Positions 11,800 to 16,747 of a stretch of 64,000 nt of DNA are shown here, in pieces. The DNA comes from a virus. The notes beneath the pieces were generated by a model that saw only the letters and a list, made by a program, of their open reading frames with translations, ran no database searches and was not told the DNA's origin. How positions within the stretch are numbered: position 1 is the stretch's first letter; every line of letters begins with the position of its first letter. Location of the stretch: the IMG/VR virus record IMGVR_UViG_3300033149_006357, positions 1 through 64,000 of that record; one strand, given 5' to 3'. A program made the translations under genes and the position numbers.

Positions 11800-12333
11800 A
11801 TGTATCCAGAACTTTGCTCAAACTGTAATGAGATGTTGGACAGAATGGCGGCAGATCGCGGCATCCACAAGATCGAGGCCGCCGAGATAGCATGGAGAGA
11901 CCGCCTTTACTGCGGCGGGCGAAAATGCGCATCGCCGGAGCTCCTATCGGAGACAGACGATTGCGTAGCGACCGCCGTCGTCGATGGCCAGCACTGGACA
12001 GCAACGCTGGAAAAGAACGCCATCGTATGGGAGCTCAACGGCAACGTTGTTGATACATGGCGCGATTGCTCACAAATCACGTTTCGTGAGATCGTCGGGA
12101 TGAGGCCGCCCTTGAAGAGGGAAGACTTCCACAAAGTGTCAAAGATATCCATTGATATGCTCAAGGGCGTGACGTACACGCCGCCCAAGAAAGTATCCGT
12201 TCCAGGTGTGGACCTGTGGGATGTGTACATGTGGGTTGACACAATGACCGATAATGACATCGAAATGGAGGGCCTTGATACCTCGAAAAAAGTCATTGTG
12301 TTAGACGACTCAATCTACATAAGGAGAAAATAA
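11800..12333 (+). CDS. hypothetical protein with Cys pairs
   Basis: 177-aa ORF; stop overlaps next start. Confidence 0.55.
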   Translation: MYPELCSNCNEMLDRMAADRGIHKIEAAEIAWRDRLYCGGRKCASPELLSETDDCVATAVVDGQHWTATLEKNAIVWELNGNVVDTWRDCSQITFREIVGMRPPLKREDFHKVSKISIDMLKGVTYTPPKKVSVPGVDLWDVYMWVDTMTDNDIEMEGLDTSKKVIVLDDSIYIRRK

Positions 12334-12692
12334 TGGAGAGGTCTGAGGATAAACAATGGTACGACGCCATTCTTGCAATGACAAGCAACCCGCACAACAT
12401 CTACATCGATCGGTTCAGCGATGGCGTCGCGATCACGATCTCTGCGGCGGGCGCGAGGATGTCCCTCATAATCCCCAATGACATGGAGCTCAAATGGACA
12501 TCAAAGGGGTGCTCGCATCCTGAGACGGAAAACGAGGTCTTGTACGTAGATGGTTCCGCAATGCAGCGCGTCTGCTGCAAACATTGCGGATTTATCATCC
12601 GGCCTTGGCGCGCATGCAAGACGCCCTGGCCGATAGATAGGGAAGCAGAGGCACACATAATGGGAGGTCTGGATGAAATTCTTGAAGATTGA
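12333..12692 (+). CDS. hypothetical protein, possible Zn ribbon
   Basis: AAGGAG SD; CSH...CKHC. Confidence 0.6.
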   Translation: MERSEDKQWYDAILAMTSNPHNIYIDRFSDGVAITISAAGARMSLIIPNDMELKWTSKGCSHPETENEVLYVDGSAMQRVCCKHCGFIIRPWRACKTPWPIDREAEAHIMGGLDEILED

Positions 12693-13023
12693 CCTGAAGC
12701 CGTGGCAACCACCGGTCTCATCAGCCGAGGCGGTCGCCATTATCTGGGCGCTGCCGACAGCGCTGGAGTTGATGCGTGACATCTTTCCAGATGTCCGCAT
12801 CGTAGAAAGGGGGAAAAGGTACTTCAAAATCAGCGGACCGACTGAATCGGTCAAACAGGTCGCGTCGAGGTACGCCGACATCCAATACGCGGCCTTGGGA
12901 TGTGGAGCACGTATCGTCGGAGATGCCATCGACATTCGATACGTGCCAAAGTCGGCGCTAGAAGCGATGGCTAAGGGAGTCCCGATGAGGGACATCATAT
13001 CTCATTTCTCAGAAGGAGAATAG
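12673..13023 (+). CDS. hypothetical protein immediately upstream of the Ubl gene
   Basis: GGAGG SD, 116 aa. Confidence 0.6.
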   Translation: MKFLKIDLKPWQPPVSSAEAVAIIWALPTALELMRDIFPDVRIVERGKRYFKISGPTESVKQVASRYADIQYAALGCGARIVGDAIDIRYVPKSALEAMAKGVPMRDIISHFSEGE

Positions 13024-13025
13024 CG

Positions 13026-13214
13026 ATGAAGGTCACGATCGTAGGCGAGGGCAGGGAAATCACGTTGGAGGATGGGTTCACCCTGGAAGAACTGGTCGAA
13101 CAGGGCATCGTCCCATCCGACTACCGGGTCTTCGACAGCAACGGGAATGAAGTTGCTTCCGACGAGGAGGTGACCGGCGACCTGGTTGCCGCGCCCGTTA
13201 CCAAGAACGCCTAA
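13026..13214 (+). CDS. ubiquitin-like beta-grasp protein (ThiS/MoaD-like Ubl)
   Basis: 62 aa, MKVTIVGEGREITLEDGFTLEELVEQ...NGNEV...DLVAAPVTKNA; AAGGAG SD; first gene of an E2-JAB-E1 cluster. Confidence 0.7.
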   Translation: MKVTIVGEGREITLEDGFTLEELVEQGIVPSDYRVFDSNGNEVASDEEVTGDLVAAPVTKNA

Positions 13215-13220
13215 GTAAGC

Positions 13221-13246
13221 AGGGCGGGTCAATGGCGACCCGCCCT
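13221..13246 (+). promoter_or_regulatory. stem-loop between Ubl and E2 genes
   Basis: Perfect 10-bp stem AGGGCGGGTC/GACCCGCCCT, no U tract. Confidence 0.55.
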
Positions 13247-13261
13247 CATCGAGGTATTATC

Positions 13262-13885
13262 ATGTATGCACTTGCAGATTCTGAATCTACCCTGGAGGCG
13301 ATGGTAAGCGGTGAATGGGAAGATAAGGGGGTGTTCTTTGTCGCCAACGTCTTCCCAGAAGACCCAGACGGGCATGTGCATCAGCACATTATGGGCATCG
13401 CCCTGGGCGCTAAGTTTTTGTTCTCCCAATGGTGTTATCGAGAGCAGCACCCGCACCGCGCGAGCGACCGGTGCTTGTGCATCGGTTCAGGGGCGACTCA
13501 CGCGCGACTTCTTATCGATCGCGGTCACCTCACGCAGGCAATCGCGCTTGTCATCCGGCACCTCAACGAGGTGAACCTGGAAGATTGCTACAATCCCTAC
13601 GATGAGTTCAGCCCGTGCTCGAATTGCGGCTTGTATACGTCCACGCCGCACAAATGCAATGGATGCGGGGATTACTTTTGTGACAATTGCATGGAAGGCG
13701 ACTATTGCCTGACATGCATAGAATATGTCTGCCCGGAATGCGGGATATACGATCCGAACACGTGCATATTGTGCGGCCAAACGCACTGCACATGCGGATA
13801 CAGCGAGTGCGTGTGCTCGGCCCGTTTTCCGGATTACGAAATGATGGTGGAGGTCTTGAAAGATCATGGCATTGAGATACATTGA
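13262..13885 (+). CDS. prokaryotic E2 (UBC-like) enzyme fused to a Cys-rich multi-Zn-finger region
   Basis: HPH-x7-C(IG) catalytic signature (QHPHRASDRCLCIG) and following helices; C-terminal CxxC repeats. Start chosen after GAGGT SD; 13232 is the alternative. Confidence 0.7.
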   Translation: MYALADSESTLEAMVSGEWEDKGVFFVANVFPEDPDGHVHQHIMGIALGAKFLFSQWCYREQHPHRASDRCLCIGSGATHARLLIDRGHLTQAIALVIRHLNEVNLEDCYNPYDEFSPCSNCGLYTSTPHKCNGCGDYFCDNCMEGDYCLTCIEYVCPECGIYDPNTCILCGQTHCTCGYSECVCSARFPDYEMMVEVLKDHGIEIH

Positions 13886-14522
13886 GGAAGCAGCGCCGAC
13901 AAAATTGATCGTCACCGATAATGTAGCACACAAGATCGCGGTGCTCATGGCATCCGAGCCGAACGTGGAAATCGGCGGCGCTGGATACGTGGAAGGCAAC
14001 GAATGGACGCGCATCTGGTGCGGTACTACAGAGGCCAGCGTCGGCGAACACGAGATGTCCGCCGAGTCATTGGCCAACATCACGATGGAAGCCCTGAAGG
14101 CCGGATTGAAGCCCGCAGGGCTCAGATTGTACTGGCATACACATGGCGTCCATGGATTTGCCCCATCGTTTTCGCAGGTGGATTGGGACACAATCTATAA
14201 GCAAGCATCCCACGGGCTAAGGATCGTCAACGTCGTGTTTGGGGGTCTCACCAAATATGATGCGGTCGAGGCATGGAAAATCACGCCCGCAAGATATGTG
14301 GTGCGCAATGTAGAACTAGAATGGAGGCTGAGAGATGATAAGGGTTATTGGGATTGGGCATCTCGGTTCCTGGACGGCACTGGCATTAGAAAGAAGAGGA
14401 TGCCAGGTGTCAGTCTGGGATATGGACACGGTGGAGCCGCGCAATCTCCCGGTGTCCCCGTACACAAAGGACCAGGTTGGCCTTTTGAAGATAGAGGCGA
14501 TTGGTCAGCTTGGGACCTTTGA
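13866..14522 (+). CDS. JAB/MPN+ (JAMM) metallo-isopeptidase
   Basis: N-terminal EIGG glutamate plus WHTHG...SFSQVD (HxH...SxxD). Confidence 0.85.
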   Translation: MALRYIEEAAPTKLIVTDNVAHKIAVLMASEPNVEIGGAGYVEGNEWTRIWCGTTEASVGEHEMSAESLANITMEALKAGLKPAGLRLYWHTHGVHGFAPSFSQVDWDTIYKQASHGLRIVNVVFGGLTKYDAVEAWKITPARYVVRNVELEWRLRDDKGYWDWASRFLDGTGIRKKRMPGVSLGYGHGGAAQSPGVPVHKGPGWPFEDRGDWSAWDL

Positions 14523-14874
14523 GACCAATGGGATGTGGATGGGAAACCCGCTGGACGGGATCGTGATATGCGCCGTCGATAACAACACGACCAGACAGCG
14601 CATCCGGGAGGCCACGGATGGGATCTTCATCGACGTGAGGTCTGCAGGAAAGTTTTGCGAGGTCTTCTGTCTGGATGGATCCCCAGAAAAAGAGGCCAGA
14701 TGGGATGCGTCATTCAGTGGCGTAATGGCGAGCGACGGGTGCGGGTCGTTCGCGTCTTCTGGCCTGTGGGTCGCATCCGTTGTGGCGGACATGATAGACG
14801 ACATCCAGGAAGGGAAAAGTGTACCCGCCCATATCATGAGAACAGGATACGGAGTGATCCAATGGAAGCCTTGA
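14335..14874 (+). CDS. E1-like ThiF/MoeB adenylyltransferase
   Basis: VIGIGHLGS, WDMDTVEPRNL, KIEA, CAVDN..TR, IDVR and candidate catalytic Cys in SDGCG; GGAGG SD. Confidence 0.88.
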   Translation: MIRVIGIGHLGSWTALALERRGCQVSVWDMDTVEPRNLPVSPYTKDQVGLLKIEAIGQLGTFETNGMWMGNPLDGIVICAVDNNTTRQRIREATDGIFIDVRSAGKFCEVFCLDGSPEKEARWDASFSGVMASDGCGSFASSGLWVASVVADMIDDIQEGKSVPAHIMRTGYGVIQWKP

Positions 14875-14934
14875 TCATACTGATCGGAATTGGAGTGTGG
14901 ATTATCGGGTTGGCGATCATACACGAGGTGTTCG

Positions 14935-15186
14935 ATGAACGTTAGAATCGCTTTCATGGAGAAGGAAAGCGCCGTCGAATTCGGTCCGGATGACGAGATT
15001 GACAGATCGCAGATCCGGGTACACGCGTCCATATTTCTCGGACATCTGAGCAGTCTCGACATCCCGCGCAAGTTTCACGGGTCGTTTCGGCTTCAGGAAT
15101 GGAAGGACCACTTCCAGGAAAGAGCCGGATACGACCCATATCCCGATGCCGACGGCGACGAGATGTGCTTTTTCGCTCTGACATAG
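14935..15186 (+). CDS. hypothetical protein
   Basis: GAGGTG SD before MNVRIAF. Confidence 0.5.
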   Translation: MNVRIAFMEKESAVEFGPDDEIDRSQIRVHASIFLGHLSSLDIPRKFHGSFRLQEWKDHFQERAGYDPYPDADGDEMCFFALT

Positions 15187-15194
15187 GAGGCAGG

Positions 15195-15416
15195 ATGTAC
15201 AGGCCATTGATTGTGCTCGATCGTGGCAAGCTGATTGCATACGACATCCGCGATGGGAAAAAGGTCGTCCCGGTGCCGGAGCAGATGCAGTGGATGAAAT
15301 TGCTATGCTTTCCCAAAGCATTCTGTCCCGCGCACCTGGATTGGGACGGAGACCTACCGAGGGCGGTGTGGGTTATCAGTGAGCTTCACGGTCTCGGAAG
15401 AAGGCTGTGTAGATGA
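15195..15416 (+). CDS. hypothetical protein
   Basis: AGGAGG SD before MYRPLIVLD. Confidence 0.5.
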   Translation: MYRPLIVLDRGKLIAYDIRDGKKVVPVPEQMQWMKLLCFPKAFCPAHLDWDGDLPRAVWVISELHGLGRRLCR

Positions 15417-15607
15417 ACACGTTTATCGTAGATGGAAAGGAGTACGGGGTCAAGGATGGAAAGTGTGTTCACGGAGAAGGGGACGAGATACAATCCGTGA
15501 GACACACCGGATACGGGATGTTCATTCTTGTGAACAACGCATGGTATCAAGTGCTCAGATATTATAACGGGATAGCATGCAAAAGAGTGGATTCAAAACG
15601 CAACTGA
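15413..15607 (+). CDS. hypothetical protein
   Basis: ATGA overlap with previous gene; ends before terminator. Confidence 0.5.
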   Translation: MNTFIVDGKEYGVKDGKCVHGEGDEIQSVRHTGYGMFILVNNAWYQVLRYYNGIACKRVDSKRN

Positions 15608-15611
15608 CCAG

Positions 15612-15642
15612 GATGGGGGCGATTCGCCCCCATCATTTTTTT
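15612..15642 (+). terminator. intrinsic terminator
   Basis: GATGGGGGCG-ATT-CGCCCCCATC then A and T7. Confidence 0.85.
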
Positions 15643-15691
15643 ATCGTCCATGCAAACCGGACGCAGAAACGCAGACTATCGGAGATGTAAG

Positions 15692-16747
15692 ATGATATTG
15701 GTAACAGGAGACTGGCACATCAGGGACAAAGAAGGGCTGGATGCACTTGACCGAGTTATCCAAGTGGCGTATAATAGACGGCCCGACCTGGTTGCGGTAT
15801 GTGGGGATGTGTTCCACTCATCGCGGCCGGGCAGCGAGATGGAGAAAGAGGTAGCCAGGCGATTGAAAGAGCTGTCGAAAATGTGCCCCGTGGTTGGCGT
15901 GAGCGGCAACCATGATTCTACATCGAGAGCCGCCGCGACGGACACGATGGATATCCTCTCGCCCTCCATATCCATCGCATCGGCCCCGAGGATAGTACAG
16001 GCCAGGGGATACTATATCGTCTGCATCCCCTGGCTGAGACCGAATCAAATCCTCGCAAACGAGCCCCGCCTGCAGCGCAACGCTGCAAACGCAAAGCTTG
16101 CATCTACTGTCGAGGCTATGGTAACAGGATATCTCACGGATGCCCCGGATGGCGCAGTAAAAGTGCTCATAGCACATTGTACCACCCTCGGAGCGGATTA
16201 TGGCGGGTACATCCCGACATCCCTTGGCGGGGAGCTGATCTGGAACACAGATTGGTTCTCCGGCTACGATGTCGTTTGTCTCGGACACATCCACAAAGCA
16301 CAGATCGTAGCGCCAAATGCCGCGTACTGCGGCAGCACCTATCGCAATACCATCGCCGAGAGGGATGTGCCAAAAGGCGTCTACATATGGGATGGCAAGT
16401 GGGAATGGGAGCCGATCTGGGCGCGCCCGATGTACCTGGTAGAAGGGACGCCAGATGAGGTCGAGATTCAGGTCGCTACGCTACCAGATGGCGCAGACGT
16501 GCAGGTCAGGGTACAACTGCAGCCACATGACGACTGGTACGGGATGGATGGGTCCAGGTTCCACAAGTTCCAGGTTCACCAGGTCATCGAGCGGGAGGGC
16601 CGGCCGTTCGCGCAAGATCCCTGGCAATCGATGAGCGTGCCAGAGGCGCTGAGGAGGTACTTTGAGATCATCGGAAAGGAGGAAAGCGAGATCGACCTAC
16701 TTATGTCCGCATTCGCAAAACTGGAGGAGTCCAAAAATGGACAATAA
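15692..16747 (+). CDS. sbcD: Mre11/SbcD-like exonuclease (metallophosphoesterase)
   Basis: GDWH, GDVFH, GNHD, AH, GHIH and YCGS motifs. Confidence 0.85.
   Translation: MILVTGDWHIRDKEGLDALDRVIQVAYNRRPDLVAVCGDVFHSSRPGSEMEKEVARRLKELSKMCPVVGVSGNHDSTSRAAATDTMDILSPSISIASAPRIVQARGYYIVCIPWLRPNQILANEPRLQRNAANAKLASTVEAMVTGYLTDAPDGAVKVLIAHCTTLGADYGGYIPTSLGGELIWNTDWFSGYDVVCLGHIHKAQIVAPNAAYCGSTYRNTIAERDVPKGVYIWDGKWEWEPIWARPMYLVEGTPDEVEIQVATLPDGADVQVRVQLQPHDDWYGMDGSRFHKFQVHQVIEREGRPFAQDPWQSMSVPEALRRYFEIIGKEESEIDLLMSAFAKLEESKNGQ

Follow-up and report, generated by a model that had tools for sequence, protein, structure and literature searches.

The 64,000-nucleotide stretch of viral DNA analysed here (hereafter the window), positions 1 to 64,000 of IMG/VR record IMGVR_UViG_3300033149_006357, carries at positions 13026-14874 a cassette of four close-packed open reading frames (ORFs) on the + strand, whose predicted products are a ubiquitin-like protein (Ubl), an E2-like protein with zinc fingers, a JAB metallopeptidase and an E1 (Table 1). 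The source record is a complete tailed phage (77,079 bp, direct terminal repeats, CheckV completeness 100%). An initial annotation, made from the letters alone, had described these genes as a complete and undescribed ubiquitin-like conjugation cascade, and its coordinates, strand and parts list are backed by the profile, fold and synteny evidence presented below. A Shine-Dalgarno-like sequence lies ahead of each of the four ORFs, and the E2-like and JAB ORFs share 20 nucleotides. This arrangement is best explained if the four genes act as a single module with coupled translation, and its origin is best explained if this module is a divergent, reduced relative of a Ubl - E2/Zn - JAB - E1 module of the Planctomycetota. 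The combination of four genes is more than chance, since searches through the E2-like protein alone led to six metagenome loci and 80 genome loci, and the same order recurs in all of the former and many of the latter.

Table 1. Coordinates of the cassette, its predicted functional residues and the downstream terminator-like hairpin (positions in the window; aa, amino acids; nt, nucleotides)
Feature	Position	Strand	Remarks
Ubl, 62 aa, predicted ThiS/MoaD-type beta-grasp	13026..13214	+	ESM Atlas model, weak SAMP2, operon position
E2-like protein with zinc-finger array, 207 aa (public gene call)	13262..13885	+	217 aa if translated from the alternative ATG at 13232
HPH motif of E2-like protein (H63, P64, H65)	13448-13456	+	sequence
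Putative catalytic Cys73 of E2-like protein (HPH-x7-C)	13478-13480	+	sequence
8 Cys pairs (16 Cys), about 4 putative Zn sites, of E2-like protein	13616-13816	+	sequence
Predicted JAMM/JAB metallopeptidase, 218 aa	13866..14522	+	domain approximately residues 10-155; tail (residues 157-218) translated from DNA shared with the beginning of the E1 gene
JAB/E1 overlap, 188 nt	14335..14522	+	E1 frame is +1 relative to JAB
Predicted minimal ThiF-type E1 adenylation domain, 179 aa	14335..14874	+	ribosome-binding site GGAGG at 14322-14326
E1 D82	14578-14580	+	sequence
E1 candidate catalytic Cys136	14740-14742	+	sequence
Intrinsic-terminator-like hairpin, strong	15612..15634	+	10-bp stem, 8 GC pairs, then T run; consensus match only

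The product of the first ORF, whose start lies 6 nucleotides beyond a GGAGA ribosome-binding site, is matched by Pfam SAMP2 with an E-value of 0.045 only (4-57 of 63 profile positions). An ESM Atlas model is available for this exact protein (predicted local distance difference test score, pLDDT, 0.75), and its nearest structures are the ThiS, MoaD/ThiS, SAMP2 and TGS/ThiS clusters, with template modelling (TM) scores of 0.66-0.79 over the whole length and of 0.77-0.79 for the ThiS/MoaD/SAMP2 clusters across residues 1-62. On the strength of this model and of the position of the gene in the operon we accept a beta-grasp fold for the Ubl, in agreement with the initial annotation. Homology with 31 Planctomycete Ubls was not significant by hhalign (P 0.016). 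A phmmer search of the Ubl against the PDB returned a designed PPR repeat protein as its sole match, which was discarded as an artefact of summed repeats (single-stretch E-value of about 200).

The second product is matched by no model in Pfam, PHROGs, PADLOC or NCBIfam, and none of the curated E2 models in these libraries (UQ_con, Prok-E2_A-E, E2-CBASS, BilB) matches either the phage protein or its relatives; for BilB, PADLOC gives no match at E-values up to 0.1. Feature matches to UQ_con (0.83) and E2-CBASS (0.76) in the ESM Atlas were treated as leads only. A wide VIA search with the model of the phage protein gave generic helical matches only, plus FYVE and PHD domains for the zinc part, and word-indexed protein searches with the E2-like and E1 proteins returned self-matches only. 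An exhaustive phmmer search against 1.84 billion representatives yielded two weak relatives only, P0003 (2.4e-4) and P0004 (5.1e-4), both of which have the His-Pro-His (HPH) motif, a Cys 6-7 residues further on, two helices and CxxC pairs; IMG/VR yielded no relative in pattern scans based on P0003, P0004 or the family alignment. The nearest relative of the phage protein is P0003, a 422-aa protein on a 13.5-kb contig (Logan/ENA) with 32% identity over the region from HPH through the Cys to the zinc sites; its N- and C-terminal extensions differ, it has about two zinc sites only, and it matches Prok-RING_2 weakly.

Starting from P0003 and P0004, the search led to six metagenome loci (L001-L006), and then to more than 400 proteins and 80 genome loci (L007-L086). 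The more than 400 family proteins are nearly all from Planctomycetota (Pirellulales, Planctomycetia, Phycisphaerae), are all annotated as hypothetical and contain zero Pfam domains. The phage protein aligns to the family profile by hhalign with 97% probability (E-value 1.1e-10) over residues 63-177 only, that is, from the HPH motif onward, and an alignment of 123 members shows no variation at H63, P64, H65, C73, L101 or the first three Cys of the zinc sites. The spacing is HPH-x7-C in the phage protein as compared to HPH-x6-C in the relatives, so that an HPN-like motif followed by a Cys is present in both.

Information on the fold of this family comes from a model of family member P0006 (pLDDT 90, predicted TM score 0.73), which is laid out as an N-terminal helical domain, a helix, a beta-meander, the HPH loop, Cys180, two helices and zinc fingers. 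Foldseek searches with this model returned nothing at an E-value of 0.001 or better, and many E2 enzymes at E-values of 0.1-0.3 over approximately 135 aligned columns (TM score 0.44-0.48, normalised to the E2). When residues 94-227 were compared by VIA-align, the Z-scores against E2 and ubiquitin E2 variant (UEV) chains ranged from 5.8 to 6.5 (UBE2S 6.5, the TSG101 UEV 6.4, E2-25K 6.3, Ubc13 6.1, UbcH8 5.9); residues 94-225 were aligned to residues 5-139 of E2-25K and 4-138 of Ubc13. The hits of this middle domain belong to a single superfamily and cover the whole E2 core. By linear mapping, HPH171-173 and Cys180 of P0006 fall within a few residues of the HPN motif and catalytic Cys of E2 enzymes. 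This assessment was made on Foldseek's own candidates only, because the wide VIA list for P0006 was filled by the N-terminal helical hairpin. In terms of its modelled structure, the Planctomycete family appears to have a middle domain that is similar to ubiquitin-conjugating (UBC) and UEV domains. Sequence profiles relate the zinc part to ZZ, B-box, TFIIH p44, FYVE and RING fingers (best E-value 6e-4), and its fold is similar to FYVE and PHD domains. Cross-brace fingers of the ZZ, B-box, FYVE and RING kind are typical of E3 ligases.

The third product is identified by its motifs and profile matches as a JAMM/JAB metallopeptidase. Its predicted JAMM site is intact, with E35 (in EIGG), H91-T-H93, a nine-residue spacer and S103-x2-D106 all read from the sequence. 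The PADLOC JAB profile PDLC00899 matches with an E-value of 1.2e-4 (residues 10-146 against profile positions 13-155, 143 of 160 positions), and alignment with 35 Planctomycete JABs by hhalign extends across the E...HxH...S..D pattern (E-value 6e-5); the match to Pfam Prok-JAB is weak (0.17). A resemblance of the Trp- and Asp-rich C-terminal tail to the tails of some Planctomycete JABs was considered and is unsupported by hhalign (P 0.63).

The fourth product is likewise a predicted ThiF-type E1 adenylation domain. Pfam ThiF (PF00899) matches with 30.2 bits (cut-off 28.1), NCBIfam ThiF with an E-value of 1.5e-9 and the PADLOC Cap2-type "E1-E2" models with 2.3e-7, and the best PDB matches are TcdA and UBA5; these library and PDB matches are limited to the first 57 residues. 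Alignment with 40 Planctomycete E1s by hhalign covers 148 of the 179 residues (95.5% probability, E-value 1.6e-8), and the nucleotide- and metal-binding residues G6, G8, G11, D29, D31, N37, K52, D82, R87, D100 and R102 are kept. The family Cys (in GsCT, 97% conserved) and the phage Cys136 (in DGCGS) are neighbouring, one column off. The phage E1 has a single adenylation domain with the candidate Cys near the crossover region, an arrangement that it shares with the Atg7/Cap2 type.

The start of the E1 gene lies inside the JAB gene, and in the public gene call, where JAB has its full 218 aa, E1 is shortened to 111 aa and loses the Rossmann motif. The E1 ORF begins at strand beta1. A JAB-E1 frameshift fusion was rejected, given the stop codon in the E1 frame two codons upstream, the strong GGAGG before the ATG and the lack of a slippery site in the region; that the last JAB residues fall within the JAB profile also counts against it. 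Selected dual coding in the 188-nt overlap was considered as well. Since the JAB frame stays open in 18% of synonymous E1 recodings, the overlap by itself is no sign of selection.

The gene order Ubl - E2/Zn - JAB - E1 is found in all six metagenome loci and in most of the long genome loci. In these relatives the Ubl is recognised by Pfam ThiS (4e-9, in a tandem di-Ubl) and the E1 by Pfam ThiF (8e-20, 4e-22), and their E1 and JAB proteins are closest to the defence-type Cap2 and Cap3 models. The Ubls share a conserved C-terminal sequence, ...TPTKIEGA, which either closes the protein or precedes 1-7 variable residues. At L006 (954-1394) two Ubls are encoded in tandem, with the junction ...KIEGAA-K. 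These ends and the di-Ubl suggest a JAB-dependent maturation. Similarly, type II Bil Ubls have a conserved Gly before a short extension, which in Bil is removed by the JAB (PMC10557695).

The four genes and their order, the invariant HPH, Cys and first zinc sites, the nearly full-length E1 alignment and the JAB active-site region are thus shared between the phage and the Planctomycete module, and the shortest forms of the Planctomycete Ubl end in Ala, as does the phage Ubl. In contrast, the Planctomycete E2/Zn proteins have a 95-aa N-terminal helical domain and more zinc sites than the phage protein, their Ubls have a Gly before the terminal Ala and often an extension of 1-7 residues, and their E1s have an N-terminal Arg-finger helix (RxxRQ). 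The surroundings differ as well. The Planctomycete module is accompanied by a large serine recombinase or tyrosine integrase, an IetA-like AAA ATPase, a 315-aa protein of unknown function and a Cas4/DruK-like PD-(D/E)XK nuclease, whereas the recombinase, ATPase and nuclease are absent beside the phage cassette; profiles of the accessory genes found no match near it (best hhalign probability 17%). One conserved block, at L017 798-12256 and also at L033, L026 and L048, reads in order: large serine recombinase, unknown, DUF1257-like, unknown, IetA-like AAA ATPase, 315-aa unknown, small protein, Ubl, E2/Zn, JAB, E1 and Cas4/DruK-like nuclease. The E2/Zn family occurs in 10 of 301 sampled Planctomycetota genomes, with up to six matches per genome, and this sporadic, multi-copy occurrence is the pattern of a mobile element. 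The chromosome of Planctomicrobium sp. SH661 (G001), for example, has E2/Zn genes at 3527318-3528220 and 3553279-3554277, approximately 25 kb apart on opposite strands; since this is a cultured strain, it offers a tractable subject for experiments. The Planctomycete module is without a name in Pfam, PADLOC, NCBIfam or the literature searched.

Several prokaryotic systems of similar composition have been described, and the phage cassette is not Bil, type II cyclic oligonucleotide-based antiphage signalling system (CBASS) Cap2/Cap3 or Bub. It shares the lineage of its E1 and JAB with them, and by analogy it may work like them. Bil, in its types I and II, is alike in that Ubl, E2, JAB and E1 each have a gene of their own within a single operon and that a separate E3 is lacking, and the type II Bil Ubl can end in Gly-Ala and is trimmed by the JAB (PMC10557695; bioRxiv 10.1101/2023.09.04.556158). 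The Bil E1, however, is a multidomain protein (IAD-AAD-CYS) as opposed to the single 179-aa adenylation domain of the phage, and the PADLOC BilD model matches the phage E1 with an E-value of 0.0022 and no significant stretch. The phage cassette also differs from Bil in its Gly-less Ubl, in the zinc-finger array on its E2-like protein and in being carried by a phage rather than by a bacterial defence island. For type II CBASS (PMC10097602), the likeness is that among profiles the Cap2-type models come closest to the phage E1 and the Cap3-type models to the phage JAB. Cap2, in contrast, is an E2-E1 fusion where the phage has separate genes, and the phage cassette has a small beta-grasp protein where CBASS has the CD-NTase; SMODS/CD-NTase (PF18144) is found nowhere in the phage record. 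A pair of adjacent Prok-JAB (1.1e-6) and ThiF (5e-17, 1e-20) genes was also observed in the replication module of crAss-like and related gut phages, namely at L087 2216-4648 (MT774378, phage cr106_1) and L088 2916-4624 (PP511520, Dulem virus 41). The ThiF protein of cr106_1 has an unassigned 180-aa N-terminal part that might be E2-like, as in Cap2.

Bub (6E/DUF6527) is likewise a compact set of Ubl, E2, JAB and E1 with the JAB directly upstream of the E1 (PMC11601596). It differs in that its Ubl is fused to the E2 and its JAB to the E1, in its Ser/Tyr oxyester chemistry and in its DUF6527 protease, where the phage has separate genes and an invariant Cys (PMC11601596); DUF6527 (PF20137) is absent from the phage record. 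Finally, the archaeal and bacterial operons encoding eukaryote-like E1, E2 and small-RING E3 proteins resemble the cassette in combining a UBC-like enzyme with a RING-like cross-brace finger (PMC5654768, PMC3082918). In those operons the RING E3 is separate and the E2 is recognisable by UQ_con, whereas in the phage the fingers are fused and the UBC-like part is undetected by Pfam. The novelty claimed by the initial annotation can thus be retained for the protein families, as judged against Pfam, PADLOC, NCBIfam and the literature searched, but not for the type of operon, which is known from Bil, Cap2/Cap3, Bub and Iyer's classes 6a-6e. A literature search, with incomplete coverage, found no paper on a complete Ubl cascade encoded by a phage. 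What is new is that E2 and zinc fingers are fused, that the cassette is connected with Planctomycete elements and that the tag is Gly-less.

In the phage genome, the terminase, portal, major head and tape-measure genes all lie on the minus strand, and the neighbourhood of the cassette consists of replication-type genes (an SbcD-like nuclease, a sliding clamp and a DNA methyltransferase). The hairpin at the end of Table 1 probably terminates the transcription unit of the cassette. Overlapping the E1 stop is a 27-codon ORF (14862-14945) with a very hydrophobic product, possibly a small membrane protein, and small ORFs without assigned function lie between it and the hairpin. No blastn match to positions 12000-16000 was found in INPHARED.

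Taking these data together, we consider it fairly probable that the cassette is a functional ubiquitin-like conjugation module. In this mechanism, the E1, probably as a homodimer, would adenylate the C-terminal carboxylate of the 62-aa Ubl; the tag would then move, possibly via Cys136 of the E1, to Cys73 of the E2-like protein; the fused array of cross-brace zinc fingers would serve, within the same protein, for substrate binding or in an E3-like role and direct transfer to targets; and the JAMM peptidase would edit or reverse the conjugates. We infer the chemical steps by analogy with Bil and Cap2/Cap3, and likewise infer that there are targets and that the phage benefits. Our guess would be that proteins of the host or of rival elements are tagged early in infection, and the purpose given in the initial annotation, the tagging of host defence proteins, of rival phage proteins or of the phage's own proteins, is pure conjecture. 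The retention of catalytic residues at approximately 25% identity argues for function. We would also tentatively suggest, with clearly less confidence, that the phage cassette and the Planctomycete elements represent an unrecognised branch of conjugation in which E2 and E3 are combined in one protein through RING/ZZ-like fingers and the tag is activated on a C-terminal Ala instead of Gly, and that the phage uses the system offensively, against host or rival-element proteins, in early infection.

It should be noted that a number of observations weigh against a working cascade. The phage Ubl has no Gly among its last 11 residues and ends in ...APVTKNA, so that an Asn (...TKN-A) replaces the conserved Gly of the relatives (...KIEG-A), and in Bil the conserved Gly is the conjugation site (PMC10557695; bioRxiv 10.1101/2023.09.04.556158). 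The RxxRQ helix, which is 100% conserved in the E1s of the family, is absent from the phage E1. In the E2-like protein, the N-terminal 62 residues, where the beta-meander of an E2 would be expected, are not aligned to the family profile by hhalign, and residues 1-72 have a pLDDT below 50 in an AlphaFold2 model built with 123 sequences. The Z-score of about 6 obtained for P0006 against E2 cores is moderate. Hence the UBC fold on which the E2 assignment of the initial annotation depends is backed by the model of a Planctomycete family member, but not by the N-terminal half of the phage protein itself. Its description of the cascade as complete holds for the list of parts, with the reservations that the UBC fold is found only in the relatives, that the Ubl is Gly-less at its end and that the E1 is without the RxxRQ helix. 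The Asn in place of Gly and the missing Arg-finger helix in particular call for caution. The phage Ubl terminates exactly at Ala, like the shortest forms of the family, and would therefore need no maturation.

Either the system tolerates both the Asn and the missing helix, or the phage copy is a decoy whose JAB strips host marks. Under the latter scenario, which we regard as unlikely, the Gly-less Ubl and Arg-finger-less E1 would jam a homologous cascade of the host, while the phage JAB, with its fully intact catalytic motif, would remove host Ubl from phage proteins. The same two losses speak for such a counter-defence role, as do the restriction of the only relatives to Planctomycete integrative elements and the closeness of their E1 and JAB to defence-type Cap2/Cap3 models. 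However, the scenario presupposes a hypothetical defence role of the Planctomycete module and a hypothetical Planctomycete host of this phage, and a pure decoy would require neither the HPH and Cys of the E2 nor the Mg- and ATP-binding residues of the E1, both of which are kept.

A decaying passenger, captured from an element of the host and no longer functional as a cascade, is a distinctly improbable explanation. It would account for the extreme divergence (approximately 25% identity, with no close relative among the 1.84 billion representatives), for the missing Planctomycete accessory genes and for an E1 whose N-terminal part is shortened and whose gene overlaps that of the JAB, but four open frames persist in a complete and compact genome, ribosome-binding sites are present and the catalytic motifs are all kept. 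Sulfur-carrier or adenylation-only chemistry, in which a ThiS-like protein is adenylated and perhaps thiocarboxylated for the modification of a cofactor, tRNA or small molecule with the Cys-rich protein as a zinc-finger partner, would fit ThiF and TcdA as the best named E1 matches and ThiS/MoaD as the nearest models of the Ubl, yet it is very improbable given that the Ubl has no C-terminal Gly-Gly, that a JAB and an invariant HPH...Cys UBC-like protein sit between Ubl and E1 in every relative and that, as the initial annotation had observed for sulfur-cofactor genes, no sulfur-related PHROGs match was found among the 10 ORFs neighbouring the cassette.

These findings have several implications. 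With proteins of just 62, 207, 218 and 179 aa, the phage version would lend itself to biochemical work as a minimal system, and a Gly-less tag would escape standard di-Gly proteomics. The E2/Zn family, with its more than 400 unnamed proteins, joins a UBC-like core to RING/ZZ-like fingers in one chain, and since in eukaryotes E2 and E3 each hold one half of this arrangement, the family is well suited to studying the origin of E2-E3 cooperation. Bil, Cap2/Cap3 and Bub have so far been studied as anti-phage defences, and a cascade borne by a phage suggests that the same chemistry is also found on the viral side.

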